Of a stretch of DNA of 64,000 nt, positions 20,901 to 36,197 are shown in pieces (within the stretch, counting starts at the first letter, position 1; each line of letters opens with the position of its first letter). The notes beneath the pieces were generated by a model. The model made no database searches. It had not been told where the DNA came from and saw nothing but the letters and a program-made list of their open reading frames with translations. This DNA is from Escherichia coli (GTDB lineage Bacteria > Pseudomonadota > Gammaproteobacteria > Enterobacterales > Enterobacteriaceae): assembly GCF_965641715.1 (NCBI RefSeq), contig NZ_OZ282453.1. The stretch is one strand, 5' to 3'. Both the position numbers and the translations under genes were made by a program.

Positions 20901-21737
20901 TTTGGAATCGATGCTGACACCATTAACCCCCCCAGCAATAACGCCGAGGTTGCGAACCCCCACACCTTTCTCGGTGCTGACCAGATTGATTTTGTTCGCA
21001 TACATTCCGCCCAGTTTGGCAACATCTACACTGTAACCGTTACGGGAACCGGTGGCGGATACGGTGCCGGTTACCTGGCCTGCGGCGTTAACATAGTTAT
21101 TACCAGCAACAACGTTCAGCTCATCGGCAGACACTTTGCCGTTAACCACCACGTTACGGGACAGAATTTCTGTCGGGCTGGCGTTATCCAGTTTACCGAG
21201 CGTAATGGTACCGCCGTTCACGGAGTAACCGGCCAGCTTGTCATCCTGGATATCCGGCGTCCCGGTGGTTAAGGTAAGTTTACCTGTATTGATTGAACCG
21301 CCACCGTTTACAGTAATACCATTCGGGTTGGCAATAATCAGATCCGCTTTATCCCCTGCAACTTCCATCATCCCATTAATGGTTGAAGGATTTTTGGAAG
21401 TAACCTCATTCAGGATCACCTTCGCCGACCCGGAGGTCAGATTACTGTTTCCCTGAATATTTCCGGCAAGTGAAGTACTGGATTCATTAGCGCTGTTATT
21501 GAAAACGACACCATTTTTATCAACGTTTAGGTTATCCCAGATATTATGAGATAAACCGCTACCGTTAGGTTTGTTGATGTCAACGACTGGCACACCATTG
21601 GCGTTATATACCGTTCCATTTTTTATGACTAATCCCGCCGCTTGAGAAGCTACAGGAAAAGACAACATCATAAGTATAGCAATAGGGGTTAATGCTTTAC
21701 CCACCGTTGCTTCCTTACTTAAATTTATCATCGCCAC
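17925..21737 (-). CDS. Two-partner secretion exoprotein, TpsA (filamentous haemagglutinin/haemolysin-like beta-helix), 1270 aa
   Basis: Signal peptide; N-terminal TPS domain with ANPNGITVNGG motif; Asn/Gly/Thr-rich beta-helical repeats throughout; no recognisable C-terminal toxin domain. Confidence 0.8.
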   Translation of the reverse strand: MAMINLSKEATVGKALTPIAILMMLSFPVASQAAGLVIKNGTVYNANGVPVVDINKPNGSGLSHNIWDNLNVDKNGVVFNNSANESSTSLAGNIQGNSNLTSGSAKVILNEVTSKNPSTINGMMEVAGDKADLIIANPNGITVNGGGSINTGKLTLTTGTPDIQDDKLAGYSVNGGTITLGKLDNASPTEILSRNVVVNGKVSADELNVVAGNNYVNAAGQVTGTVSATGSRNGYSVDVAKLGGMYANKINLVSTEKGVGVRNLGVIAGGVNGVSIDSKGNLLNSNAQIQSASTINLTTNGTLDNTTGTVTSVGTISLNTNKNTIVNTRAGNISTMGDIYVNSGTIDNTNGKLAAAGMLAVDTNNATLINSGKGSSVGIEAGLVALKTGTLNNSNGQIRGGYVGLESAALNNNNGDIQTTGDIAIISNGNVDNNKGLIRSPTGHIVIGAAGSVNNGSTKTADTGSSDSLGIIADTGVEIGANNINNNGGQIASNGNVSLSSYSTIDDYAGKILSNSKVIIKGSSLRNDTGGISGKQGIEVAVGGSLTNNIGVISSEEGDISLLANSVDNHGGFMMGQNITMESMSGVNNNTALIVASKKLKINARGSIENRDGNNFGNAYGLYFGMPQQTGGMVGKEGIELSGQNIYNNNSRLIAEDGPLTLQAQNTFDNTRALVTSGADASIQVGGTYYNNYATTWSAGNLDIDATTLQNSSSGTMIDNNATGFIASDKNLSLEVVNSLTNYGWISGKGDVDVTVNNGNLYNRNTIAAEKGLDIAALNGIENWKDISAGGDLTMNTNRHVTNNSNSNMVGQNIVINAVNDINNRGNIVSDADLNVTTKGNLYNYLYMVGYGDIALSANSVANNNATIEATGDLIIDSKGNVGNNRGNLHALNGVLSVKGNNLNNDNGEIRGYGDVTLALTGNYDSYKGSLTSETGDVTLTANIVDNAYGLIAGENVSVDAKSTIYNNTALIAANKKLVINAGGNLENRDGNNFLRNNGALFGITDNVGGIVGKEGVTLSAQNVYNNNSSIIAENGPLNLLSKGTLDNTRALLSSGADAIIRAAGTFYNNYATTYSAGNLDVYAASLNNASDGRLEDNTATGVIASDKNLDLSVDSSVTNYGWISGKGDVHFNVLKGTLYNRNAIAADNALTINAQNGVENFKDIVAGTALTIDTQKYVTNNSNSNMLGQTIAINAVNDINNRGNIVGDYSLGVKTTGNIYNYLNMLSYGVAGVSANKVTNSGKDAVLGGFYGLALEANETDNTGTIVGM
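18020..20210. repeat. Internal tandem duplication (~1.1 kb unit, two diverged copies) within tpsA
   Basis: Protein segments NTALIVASKKLKINARGSIENRDGNNF... and NTALIAANKKLVINAGGNLENRDGNNF... are about 70% identical over ~300 aa; antisense ORFs 18139-18378 and 19216-19512 share ...SPLPLIQP ends, giving a ~1134-bp offset. Boundaries approximate. Confidence 0.7.
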
Positions 21738-21999
21738 TAACGTTTTCCTTATTGATGCTATTCATTTTGGACATGCAGATCACTTTTGATGACTCACGGA
21801 ATATCAGCAAAAATGATTGCGGCAAATCCTATCACCTGGCGCAATAAAAAATCACGAAAAATAAGCTGAAATAAGGACTCAAAAAAACAACTAAGAGTTA
21901 TTGTTTTTTCATCGAACGGCGAAGAAACTAACTTACTAAAACACAATAATTTAAAAGTCCCCCATCCTTGCTCCTTGGGTGAAAAAAATCCAATTTAGA

Positions 22000-22050
22000 G
22001 GATGTCTGAAATGATATGTAGTTTTCTGTACAACATCATTTCAGACATCC
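22000..22050. repeat. Perfect 16-bp inverted repeat with 19-bp spacer in AT-rich intergenic DNA upstream of tpsA
   Basis: ggatgtctgaaatgat (22000-22015) and atcatttcagacatcc (22035-22050). Confidence 0.8.
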
Positions 22051-23127
22051 GAATAAAACAACAAAGTTGGTGAGTTACAATTAATTTAAATCTTATTATT
22101 TGATTAACAAAGCATCATCATTACTGCATCTTATTCTCTATATCTTTTACGTCGGGGTAGATTCTTTATGGTCATTACGGGCAGGCGACATTTCATTATA
22201 TTACCATTTGCATTCACGCTTGTAACCCTTAAGAGTTATATAAAAAGGAAAGAGTTCTTGCTCATGGTATTACTGAGATCGGATTAACCATGAGGTTAGC
22301 TATATAGAGAGCTTTGGCTTTGCGACAATTGGCTTAAGCAGCCACATTATGCCTGCTTATCGTTGAAAGGGAGAAAGAAGAGCAAAACGGTTTGGCAAGC
22401 TTTCATTCCCATCTAATAGCAATCACCGCTATACATCATCCCTTAACGTATTCTGGTCTTCATAAAAATGTTATTCTAAATTAAAGATTGTAATGATTTT
22501 AATAATGTTGTTATTATTTTGCAACAAAACAACCTAACACAATGATTATTCGCGATTTTTTATTAGTTAAGAGGAATTGTTTTTACAGATTGCGCTACAA
22601 TTCCGCTCATTTCTCACCACAGGAAAAGCTGAAGTAATCTTAAATGACTGTATTAACCCTTTTCTCCGCTGCCAGCACTCTTAAATATCGTTGTTTTATT
22701 CTTATAAAAACGGCTTTTTTGACATAAAAAGTAATAGGTTCAGCCATTATGCAGAATTTACAACCTGAGAAAATCGCAAAAAACACTCTTATTCAGAATA
22801 AAACTCTGTTTATCATCTTTCGGTAAGCATTAAATTACTATATTACCGTTCAACATTAGTATGAATGAAAATTCAATTGTTATACATGTGATGAATGTCA
22901 TATATTGTGCTCATCGATTGCAGGACATCGCTATTCTTTTAGAGATACAGATATCACGCTGTTACTCTCTAATATAAAGAACACGCAAAGATTAGTTGTG
23001 TTACTGCAGTTGTTATGTCGCATATGGAATGCCCATTGTTACATCTTTAGTAAAAAGCTTTATTCACTTTCAAAATTTTTACTCCATGAAGATGGGCTGT
23101 TTTGCTGCAAGCAATTGAGTTAGTGCA

Positions 23128-23751
23128 ATGAACAAGAACTTACTAACAAGGGTAATTATCATTTCGGATGATCTATATTACCTTCAGGGATTAAGTGCAA
23201 AACTAGGTCACCATTATCGTTTTTTTATTGAGTGTTTTTTTTGTTCTCAAAATGCATGCAATAATGACCTAAGTACACTTAGATTTGACAACCGCTTTAC
23301 CAAAAACGTACTTCTTGTCGCAGTGGATGACGTAAGTATACTTGCAAAACTGCCAGATTTGGCCAGGTTTTTAATGATTGTTTCACTAAGAAAGATGAAA
23401 AACAGAAATATCTTCTTTTCACTTTCAGAGCAAACATTCATTAGCCGATATATAAAATTGAATAAACTCATTACTTTGATTAAAAGTACTGATAAAGACC
23501 AGCAAGTCAGGCAGGTGACTCTGACAAGGTATGAGTGGGATATCTATTACTTATATTTTAAGATAGATAACAAAAGAATATTGCACACCCTGCTAAAAAA
23601 GGATGTCAAGTATATTAGTCACTATAAAATATCAGTTTTTAACAAGTTTGAAATTGCTTGTGATAGTGATGGCTTTTACATTTTCAAGGCACTTATACAG
23701 TTAAGGAGATTTACCGGTTTTAAAAACGTCAGATTGTATCAATTGCATTAA
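23128..23751 (+). CDS. Hypothetical protein (207 aa), possible regulator upstream of fimbrial operon
   Basis: AT-rich gene directly upstream of fimbrial major subunit; no motif I can assign. Confidence 0.35.
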   Translation: MNKNLLTRVIIISDDLYYLQGLSAKLGHHYRFFIECFFCSQNACNNDLSTLRFDNRFTKNVLLVAVDDVSILAKLPDLARFLMIVSLRKMKNRNIFFSLSEQTFISRYIKLNKLITLIKSTDKDQQVRQVTLTRYEWDIYYLYFKIDNKRILHTLLKKDVKYISHYKISVFNKFEIACDSDGFYIFKALIQLRRFTGFKNVRLYQLH

Positions 23752-23793
23752 TTAACTCGTTCTATATTAACTCTAAATTTCAAGGATATTAAT

Positions 23794-24354
23794 ATGTTTT
23801 CTACTTTCAAAAAAGCAGCTCTGCTGGCAGCTATTGCATTACCTTTTTCAACTATGGCTGCGCCTACAGTCACTTTTCAGGGTGAAGTAACCGATCAGAC
23901 CTGTTCCGTAAATATCAACGGTCAAACCAATTCAGTAGTATTGATGCCGACCGTAGCCATGGCTGACTTCGGTGCAACTTTAGCTGATGGTCAGAGCGCA
24001 GGCCAGACGCCGTTTACGGTTTCTGTGTCTAACTGCCAGGCTCCAACTGGTGCAGATCAGGCAATCAACACCACCTTCCTGGGCTACGACGTTGACGCTA
24101 GCACGGGTGTTATGGGAAACCGTGATACCAGCAGCGATGCGGCGAAAGGCTTTGGCATTCAGTTAATGGATTCCAGCACTTCTGGTAACCCAGTAACTCT
24201 GGCTGGCGCGACTAACGTACCGGGTCTGACCCTGAAAGTTGGCGATACCGAAGCCAGCTACGACTTCGGTGCGCGTTACTTCGTTATCGATAGCGCTGCT
24301 GCCACTGCCGGTAAAATTACCGCTGTCGCAGAATACACCCTGAGCTACCTCTAA
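23794..24354 (+). CDS. Fimbrial major subunit (chaperone-usher, type-1-like pilin), 186 aa
   Basis: Signal peptide, conserved Cys pair (QTCSV...NCQ), Ala/Thr/Gly-rich, C-terminal donor strand ...AEYTLSYL. Confidence 0.8.
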   Translation: MFSTFKKAALLAAIALPFSTMAAPTVTFQGEVTDQTCSVNINGQTNSVVLMPTVAMADFGATLADGQSAGQTPFTVSVSNCQAPTGADQAINTTFLGYDVDASTGVMGNRDTSSDAAKGFGIQLMDSSTSGNPVTLAGATNVPGLTLKVGDTEASYDFGARYFVIDSAAATAGKITAVAEYTLSYL

Positions 24355-24361
24355 TTAATCT

Positions 24362-24397
24362 ACTGGCTGGCAGTAAATGTCAGCCAGTATTTCTTTG
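24362..24397 (+). terminator. Attenuating hairpin after fimbrial major subunit gene
   Basis: actggctg-gcagtaaatgt-cagccagt followed by atttcttt; typical pilin-gene attenuator position. Confidence 0.5.
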
Positions 24398-24439
24398 CAC
24401 AATTAATAGTGATTTTTCATGGACATGGAAAAGATAAGA

Positions 24440-25141
24440 ATGAACATTTTTGCATATTTACTGGTACTTGTATTTTCCATGAGCATGAGCAGCAGCGCGT
24501 TTGCCAGCGTGGTAATGACCGGAACCCGTATTATTTTCCCTGGTGACGCAAAGGAAAAAACCATCCAGTTGCGAAATACCAGCGATCAGCCCTATATCAT
24601 TAATATCCATGTTGAGGATGAACGTGGTTCTGACAAGAATGTACCGTTTATGCCAACCCCGCAGACATTTCGCATGGAAGCTGCCGCAGGTCAGGCGTTA
24701 CGCCTGCTCTACACTGGTGATAATTTACCGCAGGATCGCGAGTCTGTTTTCTGGTTTAGTTTCAGTCAACTACCTTATCTGAATAAGAACGATAAAAGTC
24801 AGAACCAGCTCATCCTGGCCCTGACTAATCGAGTCAAAATTTTCTATCGTCCCAGCTCAATTGTCGGTAAATCCAGTGACGCGCCAAAAAACCTGACTTA
24901 CCAGGTAAAACAGAACCGCATTGAAGTGACGAATCCCACGGGCTATTACGTCGTGATTCGCGCCGCTGAACTGCTTAATAACGGTAAAAAAGTCCCCCTC
25001 GCGAATTCCGTCATGATTGCTCCTCAAAGCACAATTGAATGGACACTACGCACTGGCATCAGCGTCGCTCCCGGTGCGCAGATTCATTTAGTGACCGTCA
25101 ATGACTATGGCGTAAATGTCACGTCTGAGCATGCCTTATAA
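24440..25141 (+). CDS. Periplasmic fimbrial chaperone (PapD/FimC family)
   Basis: Signal peptide MNIFAYLLVLVFSMSMSSSAFA; chaperone-like N-terminus VVMTGTRIIFPGDAKEKTIQLRN; ORF extends to 24419. Confidence 0.8.
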   Translation: MNIFAYLLVLVFSMSMSSSAFASVVMTGTRIIFPGDAKEKTIQLRNTSDQPYIINIHVEDERGSDKNVPFMPTPQTFRMEAAAGQALRLLYTGDNLPQDRESVFWFSFSQLPYLNKNDKSQNQLILALTNRVKIFYRPSSIVGKSSDAPKNLTYQVKQNRIEVTNPTGYYVVIRAAELLNNGKKVPLANSVMIAPQSTIEWTLRTGISVAPGAQIHLVTVNDYGVNVTSEHAL

Positions 25142-25193
25142 GCTCTTTCCCCTTTTTTGAGCGGTATCCTTTTTCACGCACGAGTATGTCGAG

Positions 25194-27716
25194 ATGAATA
25201 AATCCGTTGTGTCAATTTCTGCGGCAATATTGGTTTTACTCTGCCAGCCGGTTATGGGGAAAGAAATCTCACCCGCTACACCGTCAGATGAAGACAACTA
25301 CACCTTTGACCCGCAACTCTTTCGCGGCAGCAGATTTAGTCAGTCGTCATTGGCAAAACTGACAACTCGTGAGTCTGTTGCACCGGGCAATTATAAAATG
25401 GACATCTACACCAATAATAAGTTGTCAGGCAGTTGGAATGTCACGTTCAAAGAAGCCGCTGATGGTCGCGTTCTGCCCTGCCTGACGCCTGAAGTCGCGG
25501 ACGCGATAGGCCTCAAAACAGGGGAAGATAAGGGTGAAAAAGATCCGGTCTGTACCTTTGCTCAGGAACTCGCTCCCGGCATCACCAGCCAGACACAGTT
25601 GTCACAACTACGCCTTGACTTGTCGGTGCCTCAGAGTCAAATGATTAGTCGCCCTCGCGGCTATGTCCCCCCCAGCGAGCTGGATACCGGAGCATCGCTG
25701 GCGTTCATGAATTATATTGCCAACTATTACAACGTTGCCTATTCAGGGCAGAATGCTCATAGCCAGCGTTCGCTATGGGCATCATTTAATGGTGGCATCA
25801 ACCTTGGTGCCTGGCAATATCGTCAGTTATCCAACATGACCTGGGATAATGACAAAGGGAATCAGTGGAACAATATTCGTAGCTATTTGCAACGCCCGCT
25901 GCCCGCCATAAATAGCCAGTTAATGATGGGGCAGCTTATCACCAGCGGAAGATTTTTCTCTGGACTCAGTTATCACGGCGTTAGTCTCGCGACCGATGAA
26001 CGTATGCTGCCGGACTCCATGCGCGGCTATGCGCCGACTATTCGCGGCGTGGCCGCAACAAACGCCAGAGTCTCGGTAATGCAAAACGGTCATGAAATAT
26101 ATCAGACCACCGTGGCTCCTGGCCCTTTCGAGATAAACGACCTATACCCCACCAGCTACAGCGGCGATCTGGATGTCACCGTTACGGAAGCTAACGGCGC
26201 AGTCAGTCGTTTCAGTGTCCCCTTTTCAGCCGTACCAGAATCGATGCGTCCAGGAACTTCCCGTTATAACGTGGAAGTAGGTAAAACGCAGGATAGTGGT
26301 GATGACTCGATGTTTGGTGACCTTACCTGGCAGCACGGGATGACTAATACGCTGACATTTAACAGTGGTTCGCGTATCGCTGATGGCTACCAGGCGCTGA
26401 TGCTGGGCGGAGTCTATGGCAGTTCGCTGGGGGCATTTGGGGCAAACCTCACTTGGTCCCATGCGCGTGTTCCCGAAAGCGAAGCGCAGAGTGGTTGGAT
26501 GTCGCAATTAACCTGGAGTAAAACTTTCCAGCCTACTTCAACCACCGTCTCCCTGGCAGGTTATCGATACTCTACCAGCGGCTATCGTGATCTGGCTGAT
26601 GTGCTGGGAGAGCGTCATGCTGCCAGCAATAAACAGTCATGGGACTCCAGCCAGTGGCGTCAACAGTCGCGCTTCGATCTTACGTTAAGTCAGAGCCTTG
26701 CGAATTACGGCAACCTGTTTGTGTCAGGTTCAACACAGAACTACCGTGGCGGCAAAAGCCGTGATACACAGCTTCAGTTAGGTTACAGCAATAGCTTTAG
26801 CCATGGCATCAGTATGAACCTTTCCGTCGGACGCCAAAGAATGGGCGGCTATAAAGACAATTCTGATGATATGCAGACGGTAACGTCCCTTTCATTCTCA
26901 TTCCCACTTGGCGGCAATGGACCTCGTGTACCAAGTCTTAGCAACAGCTGGACCCATTCAACTGACGGTAGCTCGCAATTACAAAGCTCGCTAACCGGAA
27001 TGCTTGATGAAGCACAGACCACCAACTACAGCCTGAACGTCATGCGCGATCAACAATATAAGCAGACGACGCTTAGCGGAAACATGCAAAAACGGTTTTC
27101 ACAAACTACCGTCGGATTGAACGCATCGAAGGGCCAGGATTACTGGCAGGCGTCCGGAAACGTACAAGGCGCGATGGCCGTACATGGCGGCGGCGTCACT
27201 TTCGGACCTTATCTGGGTGAAACGTTCGCCCTGGTCGAAGCAAAAGGCGCAGAAGGTGCAAAAGTCTATAACTCCAGTCAGCTGGAAATTAATGACAGTG
27301 GCTATGCGCTTGTTCCGGCAGTAACGCCCTATCGATACAACCGTATATCTCTCGATCCACAAGGAATGGATGGCGATGCCGAGTTGGTCGACAGTGAAAG
27401 ACAGGTAGCACCGGTTGCGGGTGCGGCGGTGAAAGTAATTTTCCGTACCCGTCCTGGTAAAGCGTTGCTGATTAAATCCCGCATGGCAGATGGTTCGGAA
27501 CTGCCAATGGGAGCCGATGTGCTGGATGAGAATAATACAGTCGTCGGTATAGCCGGTCAGGGGGGGCAAATTTACCTCCGCACAGAACAGACAAAAGGCC
27601 ACTTGTCAGTTCGCTGGGGTGAAGGTGCTAACGATAGCTGCCAATTGCCCTTTGATATCAGCGGGAAGGACAGCAATAGCCCTATCATCCGCCTGAATGA
27701 AACCTGTCAGTCTTGA
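25194..27716 (+). CDS. Fimbrial outer-membrane usher (840 aa)
   Basis: Size, signal peptide and beta-barrel-rich composition of the FimD/PapC family; sits between chaperone and adhesin genes. Confidence 0.85.
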   Translation: MNKSVVSISAAILVLLCQPVMGKEISPATPSDEDNYTFDPQLFRGSRFSQSSLAKLTTRESVAPGNYKMDIYTNNKLSGSWNVTFKEAADGRVLPCLTPEVADAIGLKTGEDKGEKDPVCTFAQELAPGITSQTQLSQLRLDLSVPQSQMISRPRGYVPPSELDTGASLAFMNYIANYYNVAYSGQNAHSQRSLWASFNGGINLGAWQYRQLSNMTWDNDKGNQWNNIRSYLQRPLPAINSQLMMGQLITSGRFFSGLSYHGVSLATDERMLPDSMRGYAPTIRGVAATNARVSVMQNGHEIYQTTVAPGPFEINDLYPTSYSGDLDVTVTEANGAVSRFSVPFSAVPESMRPGTSRYNVEVGKTQDSGDDSMFGDLTWQHGMTNTLTFNSGSRIADGYQALMLGGVYGSSLGAFGANLTWSHARVPESEAQSGWMSQLTWSKTFQPTSTTVSLAGYRYSTSGYRDLADVLGERHAASNKQSWDSSQWRQQSRFDLTLSQSLANYGNLFVSGSTQNYRGGKSRDTQLQLGYSNSFSHGISMNLSVGRQRMGGYKDNSDDMQTVTSLSFSFPLGGNGPRVPSLSNSWTHSTDGSSQLQSSLTGMLDEAQTTNYSLNVMRDQQYKQTTLSGNMQKRFSQTTVGLNASKGQDYWQASGNVQGAMAVHGGGVTFGPYLGETFALVEAKGAEGAKVYNSSQLEINDSGYALVPAVTPYRYNRISLDPQGMDGDAELVDSERQVAPVAGAAVKVIFRTRPGKALLIKSRMADGSELPMGADVLDENNTVVGIAGQGGQIYLRTEQTKGHLSVRWGEGANDSCQLPFDISGKDSNSPIIRLNETCQS

Positions 27717-27731
27717 TACAGAGAAAACCCG

Positions 27732-29066
27732 ATGTCTAAATCGACTTTTTTACACATTCTGATTAGCTCCATCATATTGGTGGCACTAATACAATCATCC
27801 GCTTGGGCTAACTGTACAAACACACAGATAGGTCAAACTGAAGATGGTCGGACAGCGCTTATTGAGTTCGGAAAAATTAATATGACCGACACCTATTTTG
27901 CGCCAGCAGGTTCACTCCTCGCGACAACGGTCGTACCTCCCACTAACTACACATCAGGTGGCGCGACAGGAAGCTCCGTACTGTGGGAATGTGATGCAAC
28001 AGATTTGCCAAACATCTATTTTCTGGTCGCTACCAATGGCGACGACCGCGTGGGGGGCTTTTACGATGCAGGCGGGCCTGATGGTCTGAGTGATGTCTAT
28101 GCCACCTGGTTCGCTTTTGTCGGTCTCAAGCAGACCATGGCGGGCGTGACGCTTGGTCGTTACTGGAAGAAAGTGCCCATCACCAGTTATGCCACTCAGG
28201 GAACTAAAATCCAGATTCGCTTACAGGATATCCCTCCTCTTCATGCTGAGCTTTATCGCATCAGTACGCTACCTGATACATCAGCAACAACAAGTTGGTG
28301 CGGTAATAATAATACAGATGGTAGTGGAGTCGGATTCGCAAAACCTTCCGGTACAATCTATAACTGTGTTCAGCCCAATGCCTATATTCAGCTTTCCGGT
28401 ACCAGCGGCATTTTATTTGGTCATGATGAGCCCGGCGAAGATAGTTCTGTTCATTGGGATTTCTGGGGTGCTGATAATGGTTTTGGTTACGGAATGCGTT
28501 CGGCCAATCGACTCTACAACAATGCCACCTGCGTTGCCCGCAGCGCCACGCCGTTAGTATTGCTGCCGACAATTGCAGAAGCACAACTGAATGCGGGCAT
28601 GGAAAGTACCGGTAATTTTAATGTCCGCGTCGAGTGTAGTAACTCGGTTCAATCAGGGATTAGCGATACTCAGACAGCATTAGGAATCCAGGTGTCTGAA
28701 GGTGCATATACAGCAGCGCAAAAACTGGGGATTATCAATAGCAACGGCGGCGTCAGCGCCCTAGTCTCTGATAATTATGACGCAGCAGAGATGGCAAAGG
28801 GCGTTGGGATCTACATTTCTAACAGTGCTCACCCCGATACGGCGATGACGCTGGTTGGTCAACCGGGCATCGCGAAGTTAACCCCCGGAGGAAATGCAGC
28901 GGGGTGGTATCCTGTATTTGAAGGGGCAACATTAGAAGGTGCGACTCACCCCGGATACTCCAGCTATAGTTACTCTTTTATCGCCCGGTTGAAGAAACTG
29001 CCAAATCAGACAGTCAGTGCGGGAAAAGTGCGGGCAACGGCTTATATATTGGTGAAAATGCAATGA
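27732..29066 (+). CDS. Fimbrial tip adhesin-like protein (444 aa, putative lectin domain plus pilin domain)
   Basis: Signal peptide; too large for a simple pilin; operon position after usher. Confidence 0.55.
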   Translation: MSKSTFLHILISSIILVALIQSSAWANCTNTQIGQTEDGRTALIEFGKINMTDTYFAPAGSLLATTVVPPTNYTSGGATGSSVLWECDATDLPNIYFLVATNGDDRVGGFYDAGGPDGLSDVYATWFAFVGLKQTMAGVTLGRYWKKVPITSYATQGTKIQIRLQDIPPLHAELYRISTLPDTSATTSWCGNNNTDGSGVGFAKPSGTIYNCVQPNAYIQLSGTSGILFGHDEPGEDSSVHWDFWGADNGFGYGMRSANRLYNNATCVARSATPLVLLPTIAEAQLNAGMESTGNFNVRVECSNSVQSGISDTQTALGIQVSEGAYTAAQKLGIINSNGGVSALVSDNYDAAEMAKGVGIYISNSAHPDTAMTLVGQPGIAKLTPGGNAAGWYPVFEGATLEGATHPGYSSYSYSFIARLKKLPNQTVSAGKVRATAYILVKMQ

Positions 29067-29752
29067 AATCCGTTTTGCTGCTCTTAACCGTCTTGTTCGT
29101 ACAGTCAGTGGAAGCCGGCATCATGCCGGCTTCTTCACGGATTATTTATCACGATGGCGATCGGGAAAAGACACTGATGCTGGTCAATACCAATGACTAC
29201 CCGGTACTGGTGCAAAGTTGGGTAGATAATGGTGAAGGTTCCCCAGAAGCTGCTTCTCCCCCCTTTGTGGTGCTGCCACCGGTTTTCCGCCTGGCTGCGA
29301 GACGAACCCAGGGGTTGCGGATTATCTATAATCATGACCCACTTCCCCAGGATCGCGAATCTGCATTCTGGTTAAATCTTTATGAAATGCCACCAGAAAC
29401 TCCCCATCAAGATCCCACACATTTAACGCTGGCAATGAATACGCAACTTAAAATCTTTTACAGACCTAAATCTGTAACTATGACACCTGAAGAAGCTATG
29501 CGTAAAATAAGTTGGCATCTGGTTAACAACGGCAGCAGCAGCTATATTGAGCTTAATAACCCAACACCACTGAATATCTCTTTCACCTCCATCAGCATTG
29601 GGGCTACGAAGGTAGAGCAAGAAAGCGATATGATGATAAAACCCTTCAGTCAACGACGGTACTGGTTAGCAAGTAAAAACGTTAGTGGTGTGGTTGCGGC
29701 GACATATCTCGATGATAATGGTGCACAGATAAAGCAACAATTAGCGCAATAA
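29063..29752 (+). CDS. Second periplasmic fimbrial chaperone (PapD-like), 229 aa
   Basis: Signal peptide; SSRIIYHDGDREKTLMLVNTNDYPVLVQSW resembles the chaperone N-terminal domain; 4-bp overlap with adhesin gene. Confidence 0.75.
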   Translation: MKSVLLLLTVLFVQSVEAGIMPASSRIIYHDGDREKTLMLVNTNDYPVLVQSWVDNGEGSPEAASPPFVVLPPVFRLAARRTQGLRIIYNHDPLPQDRESAFWLNLYEMPPETPHQDPTHLTLAMNTQLKIFYRPKSVTMTPEEAMRKISWHLVNNGSSSYIELNNPTPLNISFTSISIGATKVEQESDMMIKPFSQRRYWLASKNVSGVVAATYLDDNGAQIKQQLAQ

Positions 29753-29829
29753 TACCCCGCGTGGATATGTAAACTCTTCGCGATAGTTCACCGCTAACGA
29801 ATAACATCTTTACCCCTGTCCCCCCCGAA

Positions 29830-29855
29830 GTGGAGAAATGACAAAATCTCTCCAC
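29830..29855. terminator. Candidate bidirectional hairpin between fimbrial operon end and convergent SDR gene
   Basis: gtggaga-aatgacaaaa-tctccac followed by tccattttcc. Confidence 0.4.
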
Positions 29856-29896
29856 TCCATTTTCCAGTTAAAACACCTCAACGCAGCCAAAAATCG

Positions 29897-30688
29897 TTAA
29901 CGGATTGAATATCCGCCATCAATGACTAATAGTTGTCCATTGACATAATCTGAAGCGGCACTGGCGAGAAACACCATTGCCCCCATAAGATCCTGTGCCC
30001 TTCCCCAGCGTTGAGCCGGTATACGCCCTTTTATTAACTCTTTTATTTTAGGGTTATTATAAATAATAGCGGTCATTTCACTCACATAATATCCTGGGGC
30101 GATACCATTAATCTGAATATTATATTCCGCAAAATCATCGGCATACGCTTTGGTCAGCCCCGCTAAAGCATGTTTAGTCGCCGCATACCCTGGCGACCAA
30201 CGTCCCCCATGAAATGACAATACGGAACACATATTAATAATTTTCCCTTTTCTTTGCGGGACAAATATATTCAATGCGGCCTGGCTCATATCGAATGCAG
30301 CATTCAGGTTGAGATTAATCATCGGATCCCAGTCGTTTCGATTGAAATCGATAGGACGATTAATGTTACACACGCCCGCGTTATTGACCAGAATATCTAA
30401 CTGACCGAAACGCTCCAGACACCTATTAATAATGGTGCATGATGCATCAGGTTTTGTTATGTCTATTGTCATAAACTCAACTTCAACGCCTTCATGAGTT
30501 AAAGGCTTCAAATATCTATTATCAGGCTCTTTGATGTCAACCAACAATAGATTAGCCCCTGCTTTGGCCAGAGCCGAGCATAAGCCTCTCCCCAGCTCAC
30601 CCGCGGCCCCAGTTACGATGGCCACCTTGTTATGTAATGAAAAAAAATCCAATGAAAAATCTTCAATAGAAAAGCTCATATCACACAT
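29897..30688 (-). CDS. Short-chain dehydrogenase/reductase family oxidoreductase (263 aa)
   Basis: VAIVTGAAGELGRG Rossmann motif, NNAG, catalytic Y-x3-K (YAATK). Confidence 0.8.
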   Translation of the reverse strand: MCDMSFSIEDFSLDFFSLHNKVAIVTGAAGELGRGLCSALAKAGANLLLVDIKEPDNRYLKPLTHEGVEVEFMTIDITKPDASCTIINRCLERFGQLDILVNNAGVCNINRPIDFNRNDWDPMINLNLNAAFDMSQAALNIFVPQRKGKIINMCSVLSFHGGRWSPGYAATKHALAGLTKAYADDFAEYNIQINGIAPGYYVSEMTAIIYNNPKIKELIKGRIPAQRWGRAQDLMGAMVFLASAASDYVNGQLLVIDGGYSIR

Positions 30689-31366
30689 TGCTCCTTATGA
30701 GTAAGTAATATTTAAGGGATAATTTAAGTAATTTTTAGATTTCAATAAAAAAATATAAACATTAAAAATCAGCATGAATAATAAACATCAAATCTTATAT
30801 ACATTTAAGTAGTGATGTATCACGTAAAAATATAGTCATCATAGATATTATGCAGTACGCACAAAAAAACAGACTGGATTTGCTTGCTGATCTATAATCT
30901 TTATCTAAATTACTATTGGCGCTTTGGATAATAACATAAGCATATATTACCTCCTAGCAATAATAGACATAACCTCATATCAAGGTGTCACTGGTAAATA
31001 ATCGGATAAAAGACAGTACCGGTCGGCACATAGAGCTTCTTCTATTTCACCAGAAGTGCACAGCAGGGAACTACCAATCACACGGTTAGTGTCATGGGTG
31101 GAGGATGCGTCCCGTTCTTTCCCTATAACGGGGATACGCAGTTTTTATCAGTACATGCAGAAAACCCCCTAATTCACATCACTGCAGAAAGCATTTAATA
31201 GAAATATACATCGTTTAAGAATTTCAATTAAATCAAGATTATTCTTAAAAATCAGATAATTCACATTTGCATTTTTAGGAAATTATACTATAGTGCACTT
31301 AATGTTCTTGCCTTTATTTTCTGAGTAATACTGGATTTGTAATACACAACTAAGGTATAAAATGTA

Positions 31367-32179
31367 ATGATCTACATTATAAATGATGAAGTAAGATTCA
31401 ACTCATCATCTAATAAGTTAACATCACTCCTTACATCAGAGGAAGTGATACTCACTTATCCTGCGGGAAAATGCTTAAAGTTACTTTTAGATAACGCTTA
31501 TAGTGTCGTATCGCATAATCAATTCTTTGAAAAAGTCTGGAGCGATAGCAGTGCCGATGTCGCAACCAACACTTTATATCAAAATATATCGATGATAAGA
31601 CGTTCTTTTCGCGAAATCAGCTCAGCGACGATATTTAATGATGTTATCAGAACGGTGCCCCGTAAAGGCTTCAAAATCAATGAAGAAATCAGCATAACTG
31701 TTCTCGACAATAATCATACTGAGAATGAAAGTGTTGAGAGTGAAGAGAATGGTACCCACACTGAAAATATAAATAAAAATCACATTGCAAAAGGTATATT
31801 TACCACAAAGAATACATTGCTTATAGTTTGTTTTTTTGCGGCATGGGGGATAGTGTATATATCTTCTTATTTTTTCGATATGGCTTTTCAAAGCAAATCC
31901 CACACTATAAAAAAAATAGATGCTTTCTCAAATTATGCTCAACACCCTACTCAGGAAGGATGCAGTTATTTCTATGATAATAAATACTTTAATTCCGTAG
32001 ACATGTTATCACCGATTATTGAAAAATTGCAGAAGATGGAAATTAACTGCAAAATACATCCTTACATTTACATTGCAACAAATGATAGCATGAGCGGATT
32101 TTATGCTTTCACCTGTAGTCAGATGTTAAACTCTGAATCACCAAATAATTGCAACTCTCTCTATTATAAAGCGGAGTAA
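31367..32179 (+). CDS. ToxR/CadC-like membrane-anchored transcriptional regulator (N-terminal winged-helix, one TM helix, Cys-containing periplasmic domain), 270 aa
   Basis: wHTH signature ...SHNQFFEKVWSDSSADVATNTLYQNISMIRRSF...TVPRKGFKI; TM segment LLIVCFFAAWGIVYISSYFF; periplasmic cysteines. Confidence 0.7.
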   Translation: MIYIINDEVRFNSSSNKLTSLLTSEEVILTYPAGKCLKLLLDNAYSVVSHNQFFEKVWSDSSADVATNTLYQNISMIRRSFREISSATIFNDVIRTVPRKGFKINEEISITVLDNNHTENESVESEENGTHTENINKNHIAKGIFTTKNTLLIVCFFAAWGIVYISSYFFDMAFQSKSHTIKKIDAFSNYAQHPTQEGCSYFYDNKYFNSVDMLSPIIEKLQKMEINCKIHPYIYIATNDSMSGFYAFTCSQMLNSESPNNCNSLYYKAE

Positions 32180-32183
32180 TCAT

Positions 32184-32675
32184 ATGACTCAAAGATATTT
32201 TCTGTTTGCGGGAATAATTTTATGTGCTTTTATTGCAGCAATTCTGAGCCATATTGCGTTTCATCATGCCAATGAACCAGCAGAGCAAAACATATCATGT
32301 AATGCCCATGTTATTAATTTCACCGATCATACAAAAATGGATCAATATTTTTCGTTAAATATGATTTCTGAAAATAACACAGGAAACATGTATCTCACGG
32401 GCGCATACACGGTAGATGGAAAAAAGATGGGCTTCATCCGCCGATATGTGAGTTTTACATACAAGAAATTCCGTGATACCGTTTACTTCACCACTGTTAA
32501 AATACAAAAAATACAAAAAGATGATAACATTAGTGATGAAATCCTTGAAAATATCACTTCTGATTTTTTCATAAAAGTAGACACCTCAATTAATTTTTAT
32601 GTTACACGTCAAAATGATTACAACTACGTATTCTCTACAGGCAGGACACCACGCTTCATATGTATTTCCCACTAA
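32184..32675 (+). CDS. ToxS-like small membrane partner (N-terminal TM helix plus periplasmic domain), 163 aa
   Basis: Single N-terminal TM (FLFAGIILCAFIAAILSHIAF), 5 bp downstream of the ToxR-like gene. Confidence 0.45.
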   Translation: MTQRYFLFAGIILCAFIAAILSHIAFHHANEPAEQNISCNAHVINFTDHTKMDQYFSLNMISENNTGNMYLTGAYTVDGKKMGFIRRYVSFTYKKFRDTVYFTTVKIQKIQKDDNISDEILENITSDFFIKVDTSINFYVTRQNDYNYVFSTGRTPRFICISH

Positions 32676-34484: not shown

Positions 34485-35843
34485 TTATGGTGACTCACAA
34501 AAATTCACCACATCCCTCACAACCACCTTATTACGCCCGGTCTCTTTCGCCTCGTATAGTGCGTTATCAGCCAGTCGATAGATCTCATTCGGGTTTAACG
34601 CATTTTCCTGAGTCACAACAGCGCCAATACTAATCGTCACTTTTTGTGGTATGGCGTATTCAGGATTATCACCAGTTAAACGCTCAACATTTTCCCGAAT
34701 CCTTTCCGCTAAAGCTTTCGCACGTTCAGTATCGATGTCCGTCAGCAAGACGCCAAACTCTTCGCCGCCGACGCGCGCAAAAAGGTCATCTGGCCGTATG
34801 CTTTTCCCAATGATATTCACCACTGTTTTTATCACCTGATCGCCAATCGGATGCCCCCAGGTGTCGTTGACTTTTTTGAAGTGGTCGATATCCATAATCA
34901 TGACGCAATAAGGCGTTTTTTTGGCCGATGCTGATTGAACCGTCAGTTCATTAAAAAAATAATTTCTGTTAAATATATTGGTTAAGGGATCGCGATGTGC
35001 AATGTCCTTTGTTACTCGTAGCGCACTGAATATATGGCACATAAATATTACCATAACGGTTAACTTACTGACTACTTCAATAGTGCGACTAATATACCAA
35101 ATGGACACGCTATACCTGCTCATAAATAAAAGAGAGACATTGTACAGTACGGCACAAAAAGCAATCACTGTCACTCCATTCCAGATATCATAGCGTAAAC
35201 CATTAAAGTATAGATTAACCGAAAGCAAGGTTAACCACATGAAAATCATTATGGTAACATATGAAGCTTTCCAAACCACTTGACCATTTTCATTGGTTAA
35301 CTCGGCAATGTGTAAATCGTAGCTCTCATAATGGCTAGAAAGTATGTGAGCAACTATCGGCCCCCCAAGAACAAAAAACAAACTTATGCACAAAGTCATT
35401 TTTTTGGAAAATAAATTGCGCTGTTTTGTGTTTTCACTAACTTTATTCACCAATGCCAGAAATATTAATATGCACAAACTCATCTGACGAAACAAATAAT
35501 AAATTGCAATGTCATTTTGAACAACACTGCTTGTCAAACGCCCCTCAATCATTTGCTGAATGATAATGACGGTTTTAACAAAGTAAATCAAACAACTCAG
35601 AAAAGCCAAACTAAGTATACAGTTTGAAAATTGCCTACGGTCATAAATGAAATACAACTGCATAAAAATAAATGCAACAGTATCGATAAAAAATAAAGCA
35701 ATCATTACCATCAGATAGGTTGATCGTGGAACAACTTCCTCAACGCCTGGCTGATTAAACCAACTATTCACCAAAACCAAAGCAAGCCCAAACAATAAGC
35801 TCACTAAGACAGTACTACTAATTCTCAAATAGTCTTTTTCCAT
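34485..35843 (-). CDS. dgcT: Diguanylate cyclase DgcT/YcdT (membrane domain plus GGDEF)
   Basis: Starts MEKDYLRISSTVLVS (ORF extends upstream to 35966); GGEEF active site RVGGEEFGVLL; divergent from pgaA as in the known locus. Confidence 0.85.
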   Translation of the reverse strand: MEKDYLRISSTVLVSLLFGLALVLVNSWFNQPGVEEVVPRSTYLMVMIALFFIDTVAFIFMQLYFIYDRRQFSNCILSLAFLSCLIYFVKTVIIIQQMIEGRLTSSVVQNDIAIYYLFRQMSLCILIFLALVNKVSENTKQRNLFSKKMTLCISLFFVLGGPIVAHILSSHYESYDLHIAELTNENGQVVWKASYVTIMIFMWLTLLSVNLYFNGLRYDIWNGVTVIAFCAVLYNVSLLFMSRYSVSIWYISRTIEVVSKLTVMVIFMCHIFSALRVTKDIAHRDPLTNIFNRNYFFNELTVQSASAKKTPYCVMIMDIDHFKKVNDTWGHPIGDQVIKTVVNIIGKSIRPDDLFARVGGEEFGVLLTDIDTERAKALAERIRENVERLTGDNPEYAIPQKVTISIGAVVTQENALNPNEIYRLADNALYEAKETGRNKVVVRDVVNFCESP

Positions 35844-36197
35844 AAAGCTACACCAACCTGTAGGTTGTAGATCCCTTTCTATTATTAATAGATATAAGAA
35901 CTCTACAGTTGTCAATATGAAAACCCACTCACAAACAATACCGATGATGATAGTTGCAGACCGCAATTATTATTACCTTAGTGCTTTATACATTCTTTGC
36001 GACAAGACAGGCTTGTAAATATTTATAAATGGTTATAAGGAAATCCTTATAAAACATTCATTCATAGATATATTAGGAATAACAATTGAATCCGTGAGTA
36101 CAGTAACGCTGCATTTCATCAGGACTTTCGAAAAATCCGAAATCATGCATCGGAATTTACTGATTTAATTATTTTACTCCTAATTTATTTTGAAAAA

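Follow-up and report, generated by a model that had tools for sequence, protein, structure and literature searches.

In a stretch of 64,000 nucleotides from Escherichia coli (contig NZ_OZ282453.1 of RefSeq assembly GCF_965641715.1), to which we refer as the window, positions 23128 to 29752 hold an intact chaperone-usher pilus operon. This operon has already been catalogued, as loc6 of O-island 47 (OI-47), in E. coli O157:H7 and O55:H7. Taking all the evidence together, we consider it very probable that loc6 directs the assembly of a pilus by the classical chaperone-usher mechanism, with its 444-amino-acid subunit at the tip and with the 207-amino-acid product of the first gene as regulator. 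The locus is ordinary, already known and functionally uncharacterised, and what is new here is modest: a fold assignment for the first gene together with a recurring module around its family, a model of a receptor domain of the StbD type, and the observation of recombinant alleles of the adhesin.

Operon organisation and identity with loc6

The six open reading frames (ORFs) that a preliminary description of this DNA had listed are all present on the + strand and in complete order, and five of them match chaperone-usher families of Pfam well above threshold, in agreement with the membership then proposed. The first ORF (23128-23751, 207 amino acids, 'hypothetical' in RefSeq) encodes a predicted receiver-like domain (residues ~7-120) and a predicted LuxR-type four-helix helix-turn-helix (HTH) domain (~134-196). 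It is followed by the genes of the major pilin (23794-24354, 186 amino acids, with a signal peptide; Fimbrial, PF00419, 1.3e-14), a first chaperone (24440-25141 with the RefSeq start, 233 amino acids, or 24419-25141, 240 amino acids; PapD_N 2.4e-35, PapD_C 3.7e-14) and the outer-membrane usher (25194-27716, 840 amino acids; Usher, PF00577, 4.4e-152; PapC_N, PF13954, 5.6e-31; PapC_C, PF13953, 1.8e-21). Next come a 444-amino-acid two-domain subunit with a signal peptide, the putative StbD-type tip adhesin (27732-29066; N-domain ~26-262, pilin domain 263-444), and a second chaperone (29063-29752, 229 amino acids; PapD_N 6.8e-38, PapD_C 3.4e-11).

The stop codon of the adhesin gene and the start codon of chaperone 2 overlap in the tetranucleotide ATGA (29063-29066), and the remaining gaps between the structural genes measure 15-85 nucleotides, a layout that indicates a single operon. 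On the 3' side of the pilin gene lies a stem-loop on the + strand (24361-24389; 12-bp stem, 5-nt loop, T-rich tail), which had been noticed beforehand and which folding confirmed, with a free energy of -20.5 kcal/mol and a z-score of -5.2, none of 200 shuffled sequences folding as well. Its stem is intact in a deeply diverged copy of the locus (L002, described below), despite changes in the neighbouring spacer. This hairpin is probably a partial terminator or an mRNA stabiliser that sets the ratio of pilin to assembly proteins. A possible terminator of the whole operon is found on the same strand at 29829-29856, as a weak hairpin followed by the T-tract CCAUUUUCC (z -2.75 for the spacer as a whole). 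We also observed 100% conservation, even in the diverged copy, of a 33-base segment (24413-24445) that contains both candidate start codons of chaperone 1 (24419 and 24440), the adjacent spacer being changed; since both start codons are equally conserved, either of them could be the true one.

A locus query of 6,901 bases (6.9 kb) was compared with 5,426 complete E. coli genomes, and the locus was found in 401 of these, at least 80% of its length being present in 376, as expected from its earlier designation as accessory. The best DNA match is that of E. coli RM14516 (99.0%), and O157:H7 and O55:H7 match at 98.5% over 100% of the query. O-island 47 is a 31.7-kb island (z1528-z1556), with GrvA as z1531 (PMC8565820; PMC10877973), in which the cluster studied here was named loc6 (ECs1276-1280) and the neighbouring secretion pair OtpAB (bioRxiv 10.1101/2020.04.13.038984). 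The gene order of loc6 in O157:H7 and O55:H7 and its neighbours (OtpAB, SDR, GrvA, the VmpA-type EAL protein, DgcT and pgaABCD) are as in the window, and the pilin and adhesin proteins of O55:H7 CB9615 are identical to those encoded here. The window itself is from a non-O157 E. coli, and the chaperone 1, usher and chaperone 2 genes of O157:H7 and O55:H7 differ from it by 1.5-2.6% at the DNA level. In CB9615 and in the window alike, one flank contains a block of fatty-acid/polyketide-like genes and the two-partner secretion (TPS) pair, and the other an SDR gene, a winged-helix regulator, an EAL protein and a diguanylate cyclase, then pgaABCD, phoH and efeUOB. The operon thus stands where the preliminary description had put it, between a TPS/lipid island (OtpAB and the fatty-acid-like block) and genes of cyclic di-GMP metabolism (the EAL protein and the diguanylate cyclase).

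Metagenome assemblies (L002-L004) contain a copy of the entire island segment that has diverged deeply, with every gene kept and in the same order. At the protein level, the pilin, chaperone 1, usher, adhesin, OtpA and OtpB of this copy share 82-89% identity with their counterparts in the window and chaperone 2 shares 70%, whereas the 207-amino-acid protein, GrvA and the GrvA partner reach only 50-55%. For the structural genes, the ratio of nonsynonymous to synonymous divergence (dN/dS) is 0.03-0.13 at a dS of 1.0-1.8, where synonymous sites are saturated. Such low ratios at saturated dS indicate purifying selection, which means that the operon is no decaying relic.

The 444-amino-acid subunit and its assembly partners

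The 444-amino-acid protein matches Pfam Fimbrial at residues 263-444 only (1.6e-15), its ~260 N-terminal residues being without a family, and no solved structure was detected for it when its sequence was compared with the PDB. More than 300 homologues (423-462 amino acids, covering 94-100% of the protein) occur in genera that include Serratia, Klebsiella, Proteus, Providencia, Erwinia, Pantoea, Pseudomonas, Acinetobacter and Aeromonas; the ORF is thus no fusion artefact, a possibility that had been raised when the adhesin was first proposed. AlphaFold2, run on 43 homologues, gave a confident model (predicted local distance difference test score, pLDDT, 91; predicted template modelling score, pTM, 0.82), which presents the features of two-domain tip adhesins, namely a C-terminal pilin domain and, in the place of the donor strand, a predicted N-terminal receptor-binding beta-sandwich. 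When this model was used in Foldseek, full-length two-domain tip adhesins came at the top (LpfD, CupB6, CsuE and PapG), followed by many pilin domains. The mature N-termini differ accordingly: that of the major pilin (APTVTFQGEV) has the alternating hydrophobic pattern of a donor strand, whereas that of the 444-amino-acid protein (NCTNTQIG...) has no such pattern. The assignment of this protein as a two-domain tip adhesin is well supported by the predicted structure.

The N-domain of the model is similar in predicted fold to the receptor-binding domains of MrkD, Abp1D and F17G/GafD, but its identity to these is just 10-13%, it contains no Pfam domain, and it comprises ~237 residues against their 160-180, with ~85 extra residues. 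Binding to host proteins is reported for the adhesins from which the best structural matches of the model come. The preliminary description had suggested that the protein is a two-domain lectin adhesin; the two-domain part of this suggestion is upheld by the Fimbrial match and the model, and the lectin part is not supported, given the protein binding reported for the best fold matches and the larger size of the N-domain.

Within E. coli, the region coding for the N-domain (27732-28517) occurs in two porcine strains (L005 and L006) as a distinct allele, with a dS of 0.40-0.46, a dN of ~0.06 and a dN/dS of 0.15, the genes that flank it having a dS of ~0.1. As the divergence is high at synonymous sites too, this indicates a recombined allele of the receptor domain, in a mosaic that does not extend beyond the N-domain. 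We also tested the adhesin for positive selection and rejected it, since dN/dS is 0.15 at most and synonymous divergence is also raised.

The two chaperones share only 32% identity, which makes them old paralogues, and among solved structures both stand closest to YadV and CupB2, with FimC also among the nearest. The succession of pilin, chaperone, usher, ~440-amino-acid subunit and chaperone recurs in Proteus mirabilis and Pseudomonas citronellolis, and the same five-gene order is that of Salmonella enterica Stb (stbABCDE). Residues 23-444 of the adhesin align to positions 45-441 of the StbD model (E 1e-32). The cut-offs of the Stb equivalog models are, nevertheless, not reached: StbD scores 113 against 363 bits, PRK15248, the best NCBIfam model for the usher, which is presumably StbC since its model number falls between those of StbD and StbB, 701 against 996 bits, and StbB, for the chaperones, 117 and 115 against 550 bits. 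With scores so far under the equivalog cut-offs, loc6 is Stb-like in architecture and a paralogous relative, not an orthologue. To our knowledge, no receptor is known for Stb fimbriae.

The CupB system of P. aeruginosa (CupB1-6) offers a second comparison. It has two non-redundant chaperones, of which CupB2 ranks first or second among the solved relatives of each loc6 chaperone; CupB6, its tip adhesin with two domains, belongs to the best structural matches of the 444-amino-acid model; and, like loc6, it is genetically linked to a TPS-type protein. The TpsA-like CupB5 is, however, encoded within the operon, whereas OtpAB form a separate, divergent unit with an own TpsB transporter of the ShlB type. 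CupB5 is exported by a 'P-usher' with a POTRA-like extension, and no POTRA-like N-terminal extension is present in the loc6 usher, in which PapC_N begins at residue 37 of 840. Biochemical work on CupB suggested that CupB2 acts for the major pilin and CupB4 for the adhesin-containing complex (PMC3031594). By this analogy, and because of the translational coupling of the last two genes and the conserved gene order, chaperone 2 is most likely dedicated to the large adhesin and chaperone 1 to the pilin.

We propose that the subunits would be exported via Sec and caught in the periplasm by the PapD-type chaperones, through donor-strand complementation, and that the chaperones would hand them to the 840-amino-acid usher. 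The 444-amino-acid subunit would be the first to pass and would stand at the tip, the major pilin supplying the N-terminal strand that completes its pilin domain, and the 186-amino-acid pilin would polymerise directly under it, because the operon is without genes for adaptor subunits. The stem-loop would terminate or stabilise most transcripts, giving pilin in excess of the assembly proteins. Chaperone 2, coupled in translation to the adhesin gene and kept with it from E. coli to Pseudomonas, would serve the large adhesin, and the 207-amino-acid protein would act as the transcription factor of the operon.

The first gene, the upstream region and neighbouring genes

The frame of the 207-amino-acid protein is open and of equal length in the diverged island copy, at 55% identity, and its dN/dS within E. 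coli is 0.02; these observations identify it as a real gene. No match was found in Pfam or NCBIfam, and a comparison with the PDB by sequence gave nothing meaningful. When 1.8 billion representative proteins were searched exhaustively with HMMER, only 11 relatives came back, eight of them distant (24-33% identity, ~200 amino acids), and a profile search added a few more; all those with a source name are labelled 'hypothetical'. The profile of the family matches the LuxR-type HTH of RcsB weakly (E 0.027; with hhalign, E 4.7e-5 and a probability of 68%), and Pfam GerE is weakly matched by four of 21 family members (best E 0.0031). Homology to K-12 YqeH, an attractive idea in view of the paralogy of GrvA with YqeI and of its partner with YqeJ, was tested and rejected (hhalign probability 0.6%, E 0.1).

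In the AlphaFold2 model of the protein (pLDDT 83, pTM 0.79), an N-domain of alternating beta-strands and alpha-helices, with a receiver (CheY-like) fold, precedes a C-terminal four-helix bundle. Equivalents of the receiver pocket are conserved by sequence position (Asp14 and Asp15 after beta1, Asp67 after beta3, which is Asp or Glu in the relatives, and Ser86 in beta4), and the position of the canonical receiver Lys is occupied by an invariant Arg107. Conservation is highest in the C-terminal helices, which align to the HTH of RcsB (135-200). The combination of receiver and four-helix HTH is thus predicted to be that of the NarL/FixJ regulators with a LuxR-type HTH, such as RcsB, but the protein differs from this family in that Pfam Response_reg and GerE miss it, in the presence of Arg for the conserved Lys and in having no adjacent kinase gene. 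From the model, it looks like a very diverged transcription factor of the response-regulator type.

The genomic contexts of the family that we inspected were those of L008, L009-L014, L018 and L019, plus the window and L002. A small EAL-domain gene (~256 amino acids) stands immediately upstream of the 207-amino-acid relative in five of the contexts examined, and often a divergent ToxR-type gene, paired with a small gene (mostly ~160 amino acids), lies alongside, also in other genera. On the 3' side of family members we found chaperone-usher genes (window, L002, L008 and L013), YadA-type autotransporters (L011) and a pertactin-type autotransporter (L019), an adhesin gene being located downstream in five of the six relatives with a readable downstream gene. 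FimZ and MrkI are fimbrial examples of NarL/FixJ-type regulators, MrkI being paired with MrkJ and, like this pair, the 207-amino-acid relatives stand with an EAL-domain gene by adhesin operons. The protein is a probable regulator of adhesin operons, from a small unannotated family with a predicted receiver-like domain and HTH, so that the label of candidate regulator given to it beforehand holds as a prediction. It may bind DNA, and a link to cyclic di-GMP may exist.

A broader and tentative idea, rather unlikely as it stands, is that this undescribed family of orphan regulators and its EAL partner, often accompanied by the divergent ToxR-type/YqeJ-type pair, constitute a portable control module placed before three classes of adhesin and, in OI-47, tying loc6 to VmpA, DgcT and GrvA. 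If true, the module would serve chaperone-usher pili, YadA-type trimeric autotransporters and pertactin-type autotransporters, by means of a regulator family that is invisible to Pfam and NCBIfam.

The region between the divergent otpA and the operon (21738-23127) measures 1.4 kb, is AT-rich (33-35% GC), contains no ORF that matches a family and is presumed to be regulatory. Judging from its sequence, this upstream region of loc6 is likely silenced by H-NS. A promoter scan gave a number of sites not above that of shuffled sequence, and none of them could be taken as the promoter. We looked in the 1.4-kb region for an invertible promoter switch like that of fim and rejected it, as only short or imperfect inverted repeats of the kind common in AT-rich DNA and no nearby recombinase were found. 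A perfect 16-bp inverted repeat, GGATGTCTGAAATGAT, with a 19-nt spacer, is located at 22000-22050 in this intergenic region; it is exact in RM14516, in O55:H7 only one of its arms is exact, and it is absent from the diverged L002-L004. Because it is not kept in the diverged copies, this palindrome was also rejected as a switch. An Rfam scan of positions 21500-31500 returned no known RNA element and only two sub-threshold chance matches (a miRNA and a coronavirus pseudoknot), of which the miRNA-like one is all that Rfam gave for the palindrome.

Among the neighbouring genes, GrvA (31367-32179), of the ToxR-type winged-helix class, is a paralogue of K-12 YqeI (32% identity, E 2e-39), and its 163-amino-acid partner (32184-32675) is a paralogue of K-12 YqeJ (E 3e-17). 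The pair evolves at a much higher rate than the structural genes, with ~50% against 82-89% identity to the diverged island copy. The otpA gene (17925-21737; TpsA, 1270 amino acids) is intact in the window, is annotated as frameshifted in ETEC6335 and RM14516, and appears as two genes in L003. The diguanylate cyclase with MASE4 and GGDEF domains (DgcT/YcdT-like, 34485-35966) is an intact ORF of 492 amino acids in the window and is split or frameshifted in CB9615.

Alternative readings and significance

Several observations weigh against a functional pilus with the tip, chaperone and regulator roles proposed here. In the literature on OI-47 and loc6, no pilus, receptor or phenotype has been demonstrated for the locus, and a loc6 deletion mutant of strain Sakai bound to spinach roots like the wild type (bioRxiv 10.1101/2020.04.13.038984). 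The usher is interrupted by IS1203 or IS3 in some O157 genomes, and O145 strains retain part of the locus (PMC5567499); in view of such insertions of insertion sequences and partial deletions, the operon is dispensable. As for the individual roles, the 207-amino-acid protein matches no curated family significantly and the homology of its HTH is marginal (hhalign 68%), and the suggested specificity of chaperone 2 is drawn from gene order and analogy alone. It could thus be argued that loc6 is a cryptic, H-NS-silenced relic, carried along with the island and without a contribution in nature, a reading consistent with the AT-rich upstream region, with the missing phenotype on spinach roots and with the fact that usher insertions and O145 truncations are tolerated. 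We regard this as unlikely, given the purifying selection on the structural genes, and we retain the reading of loc6 as a chaperone-usher operon of classical mechanism.

The roles given to its two less conventional products have their own alternatives. The tip subunit may bind a protein or an abiotic surface instead of a sugar, and be no lectin. The protein binding reported for its best fold matches points in this direction, but lectin domains of the F17 type match as well, a ligand is not predictable from fold similarity, and with its additional ~85 residues the N-domain may have a different binding site; accordingly, we give the non-lectin reading slightly less than an even chance. The 207-amino-acid ORF, in turn, might be a fast-evolving gene of some other function, as could be read from its empty Pfam and NCBIfam results, its AT-rich composition and its 55% identity between the island copies, compared with 82-89% for the structural genes. 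We find this decidedly improbable, because frame length is kept without a stop at that level of divergence and dN/dS within E. coli is very low, the AlphaFold2 model of a receiver with four helices is confident, the best conserved part is precisely that which aligns to the RcsB HTH, and an adhesin gene follows five of the six relatives with a readable downstream gene. A role as regulator of the operon is therefore what we favour for this protein.

The value of the locus as a discovery is small, since chaperone-usher pili are a well-understood class of organelle and earlier publications have both named loc6 and reported its deletion. Nevertheless, OI-47 marks the O157:H7/O55:H7 lineage, and loc6 counts among the uncharacterised candidate adhesin loci of this island, with a putative tip subunit whose large receptor-binding domain has no solved relative and occurs as recombinant alleles within E. 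coli. An operon that is intact and under selection, a large predicted receptor domain and a probable regulator together provide handles for finding the conditions under which loc6 is expressed and the receptor to which its adhesin may bind.

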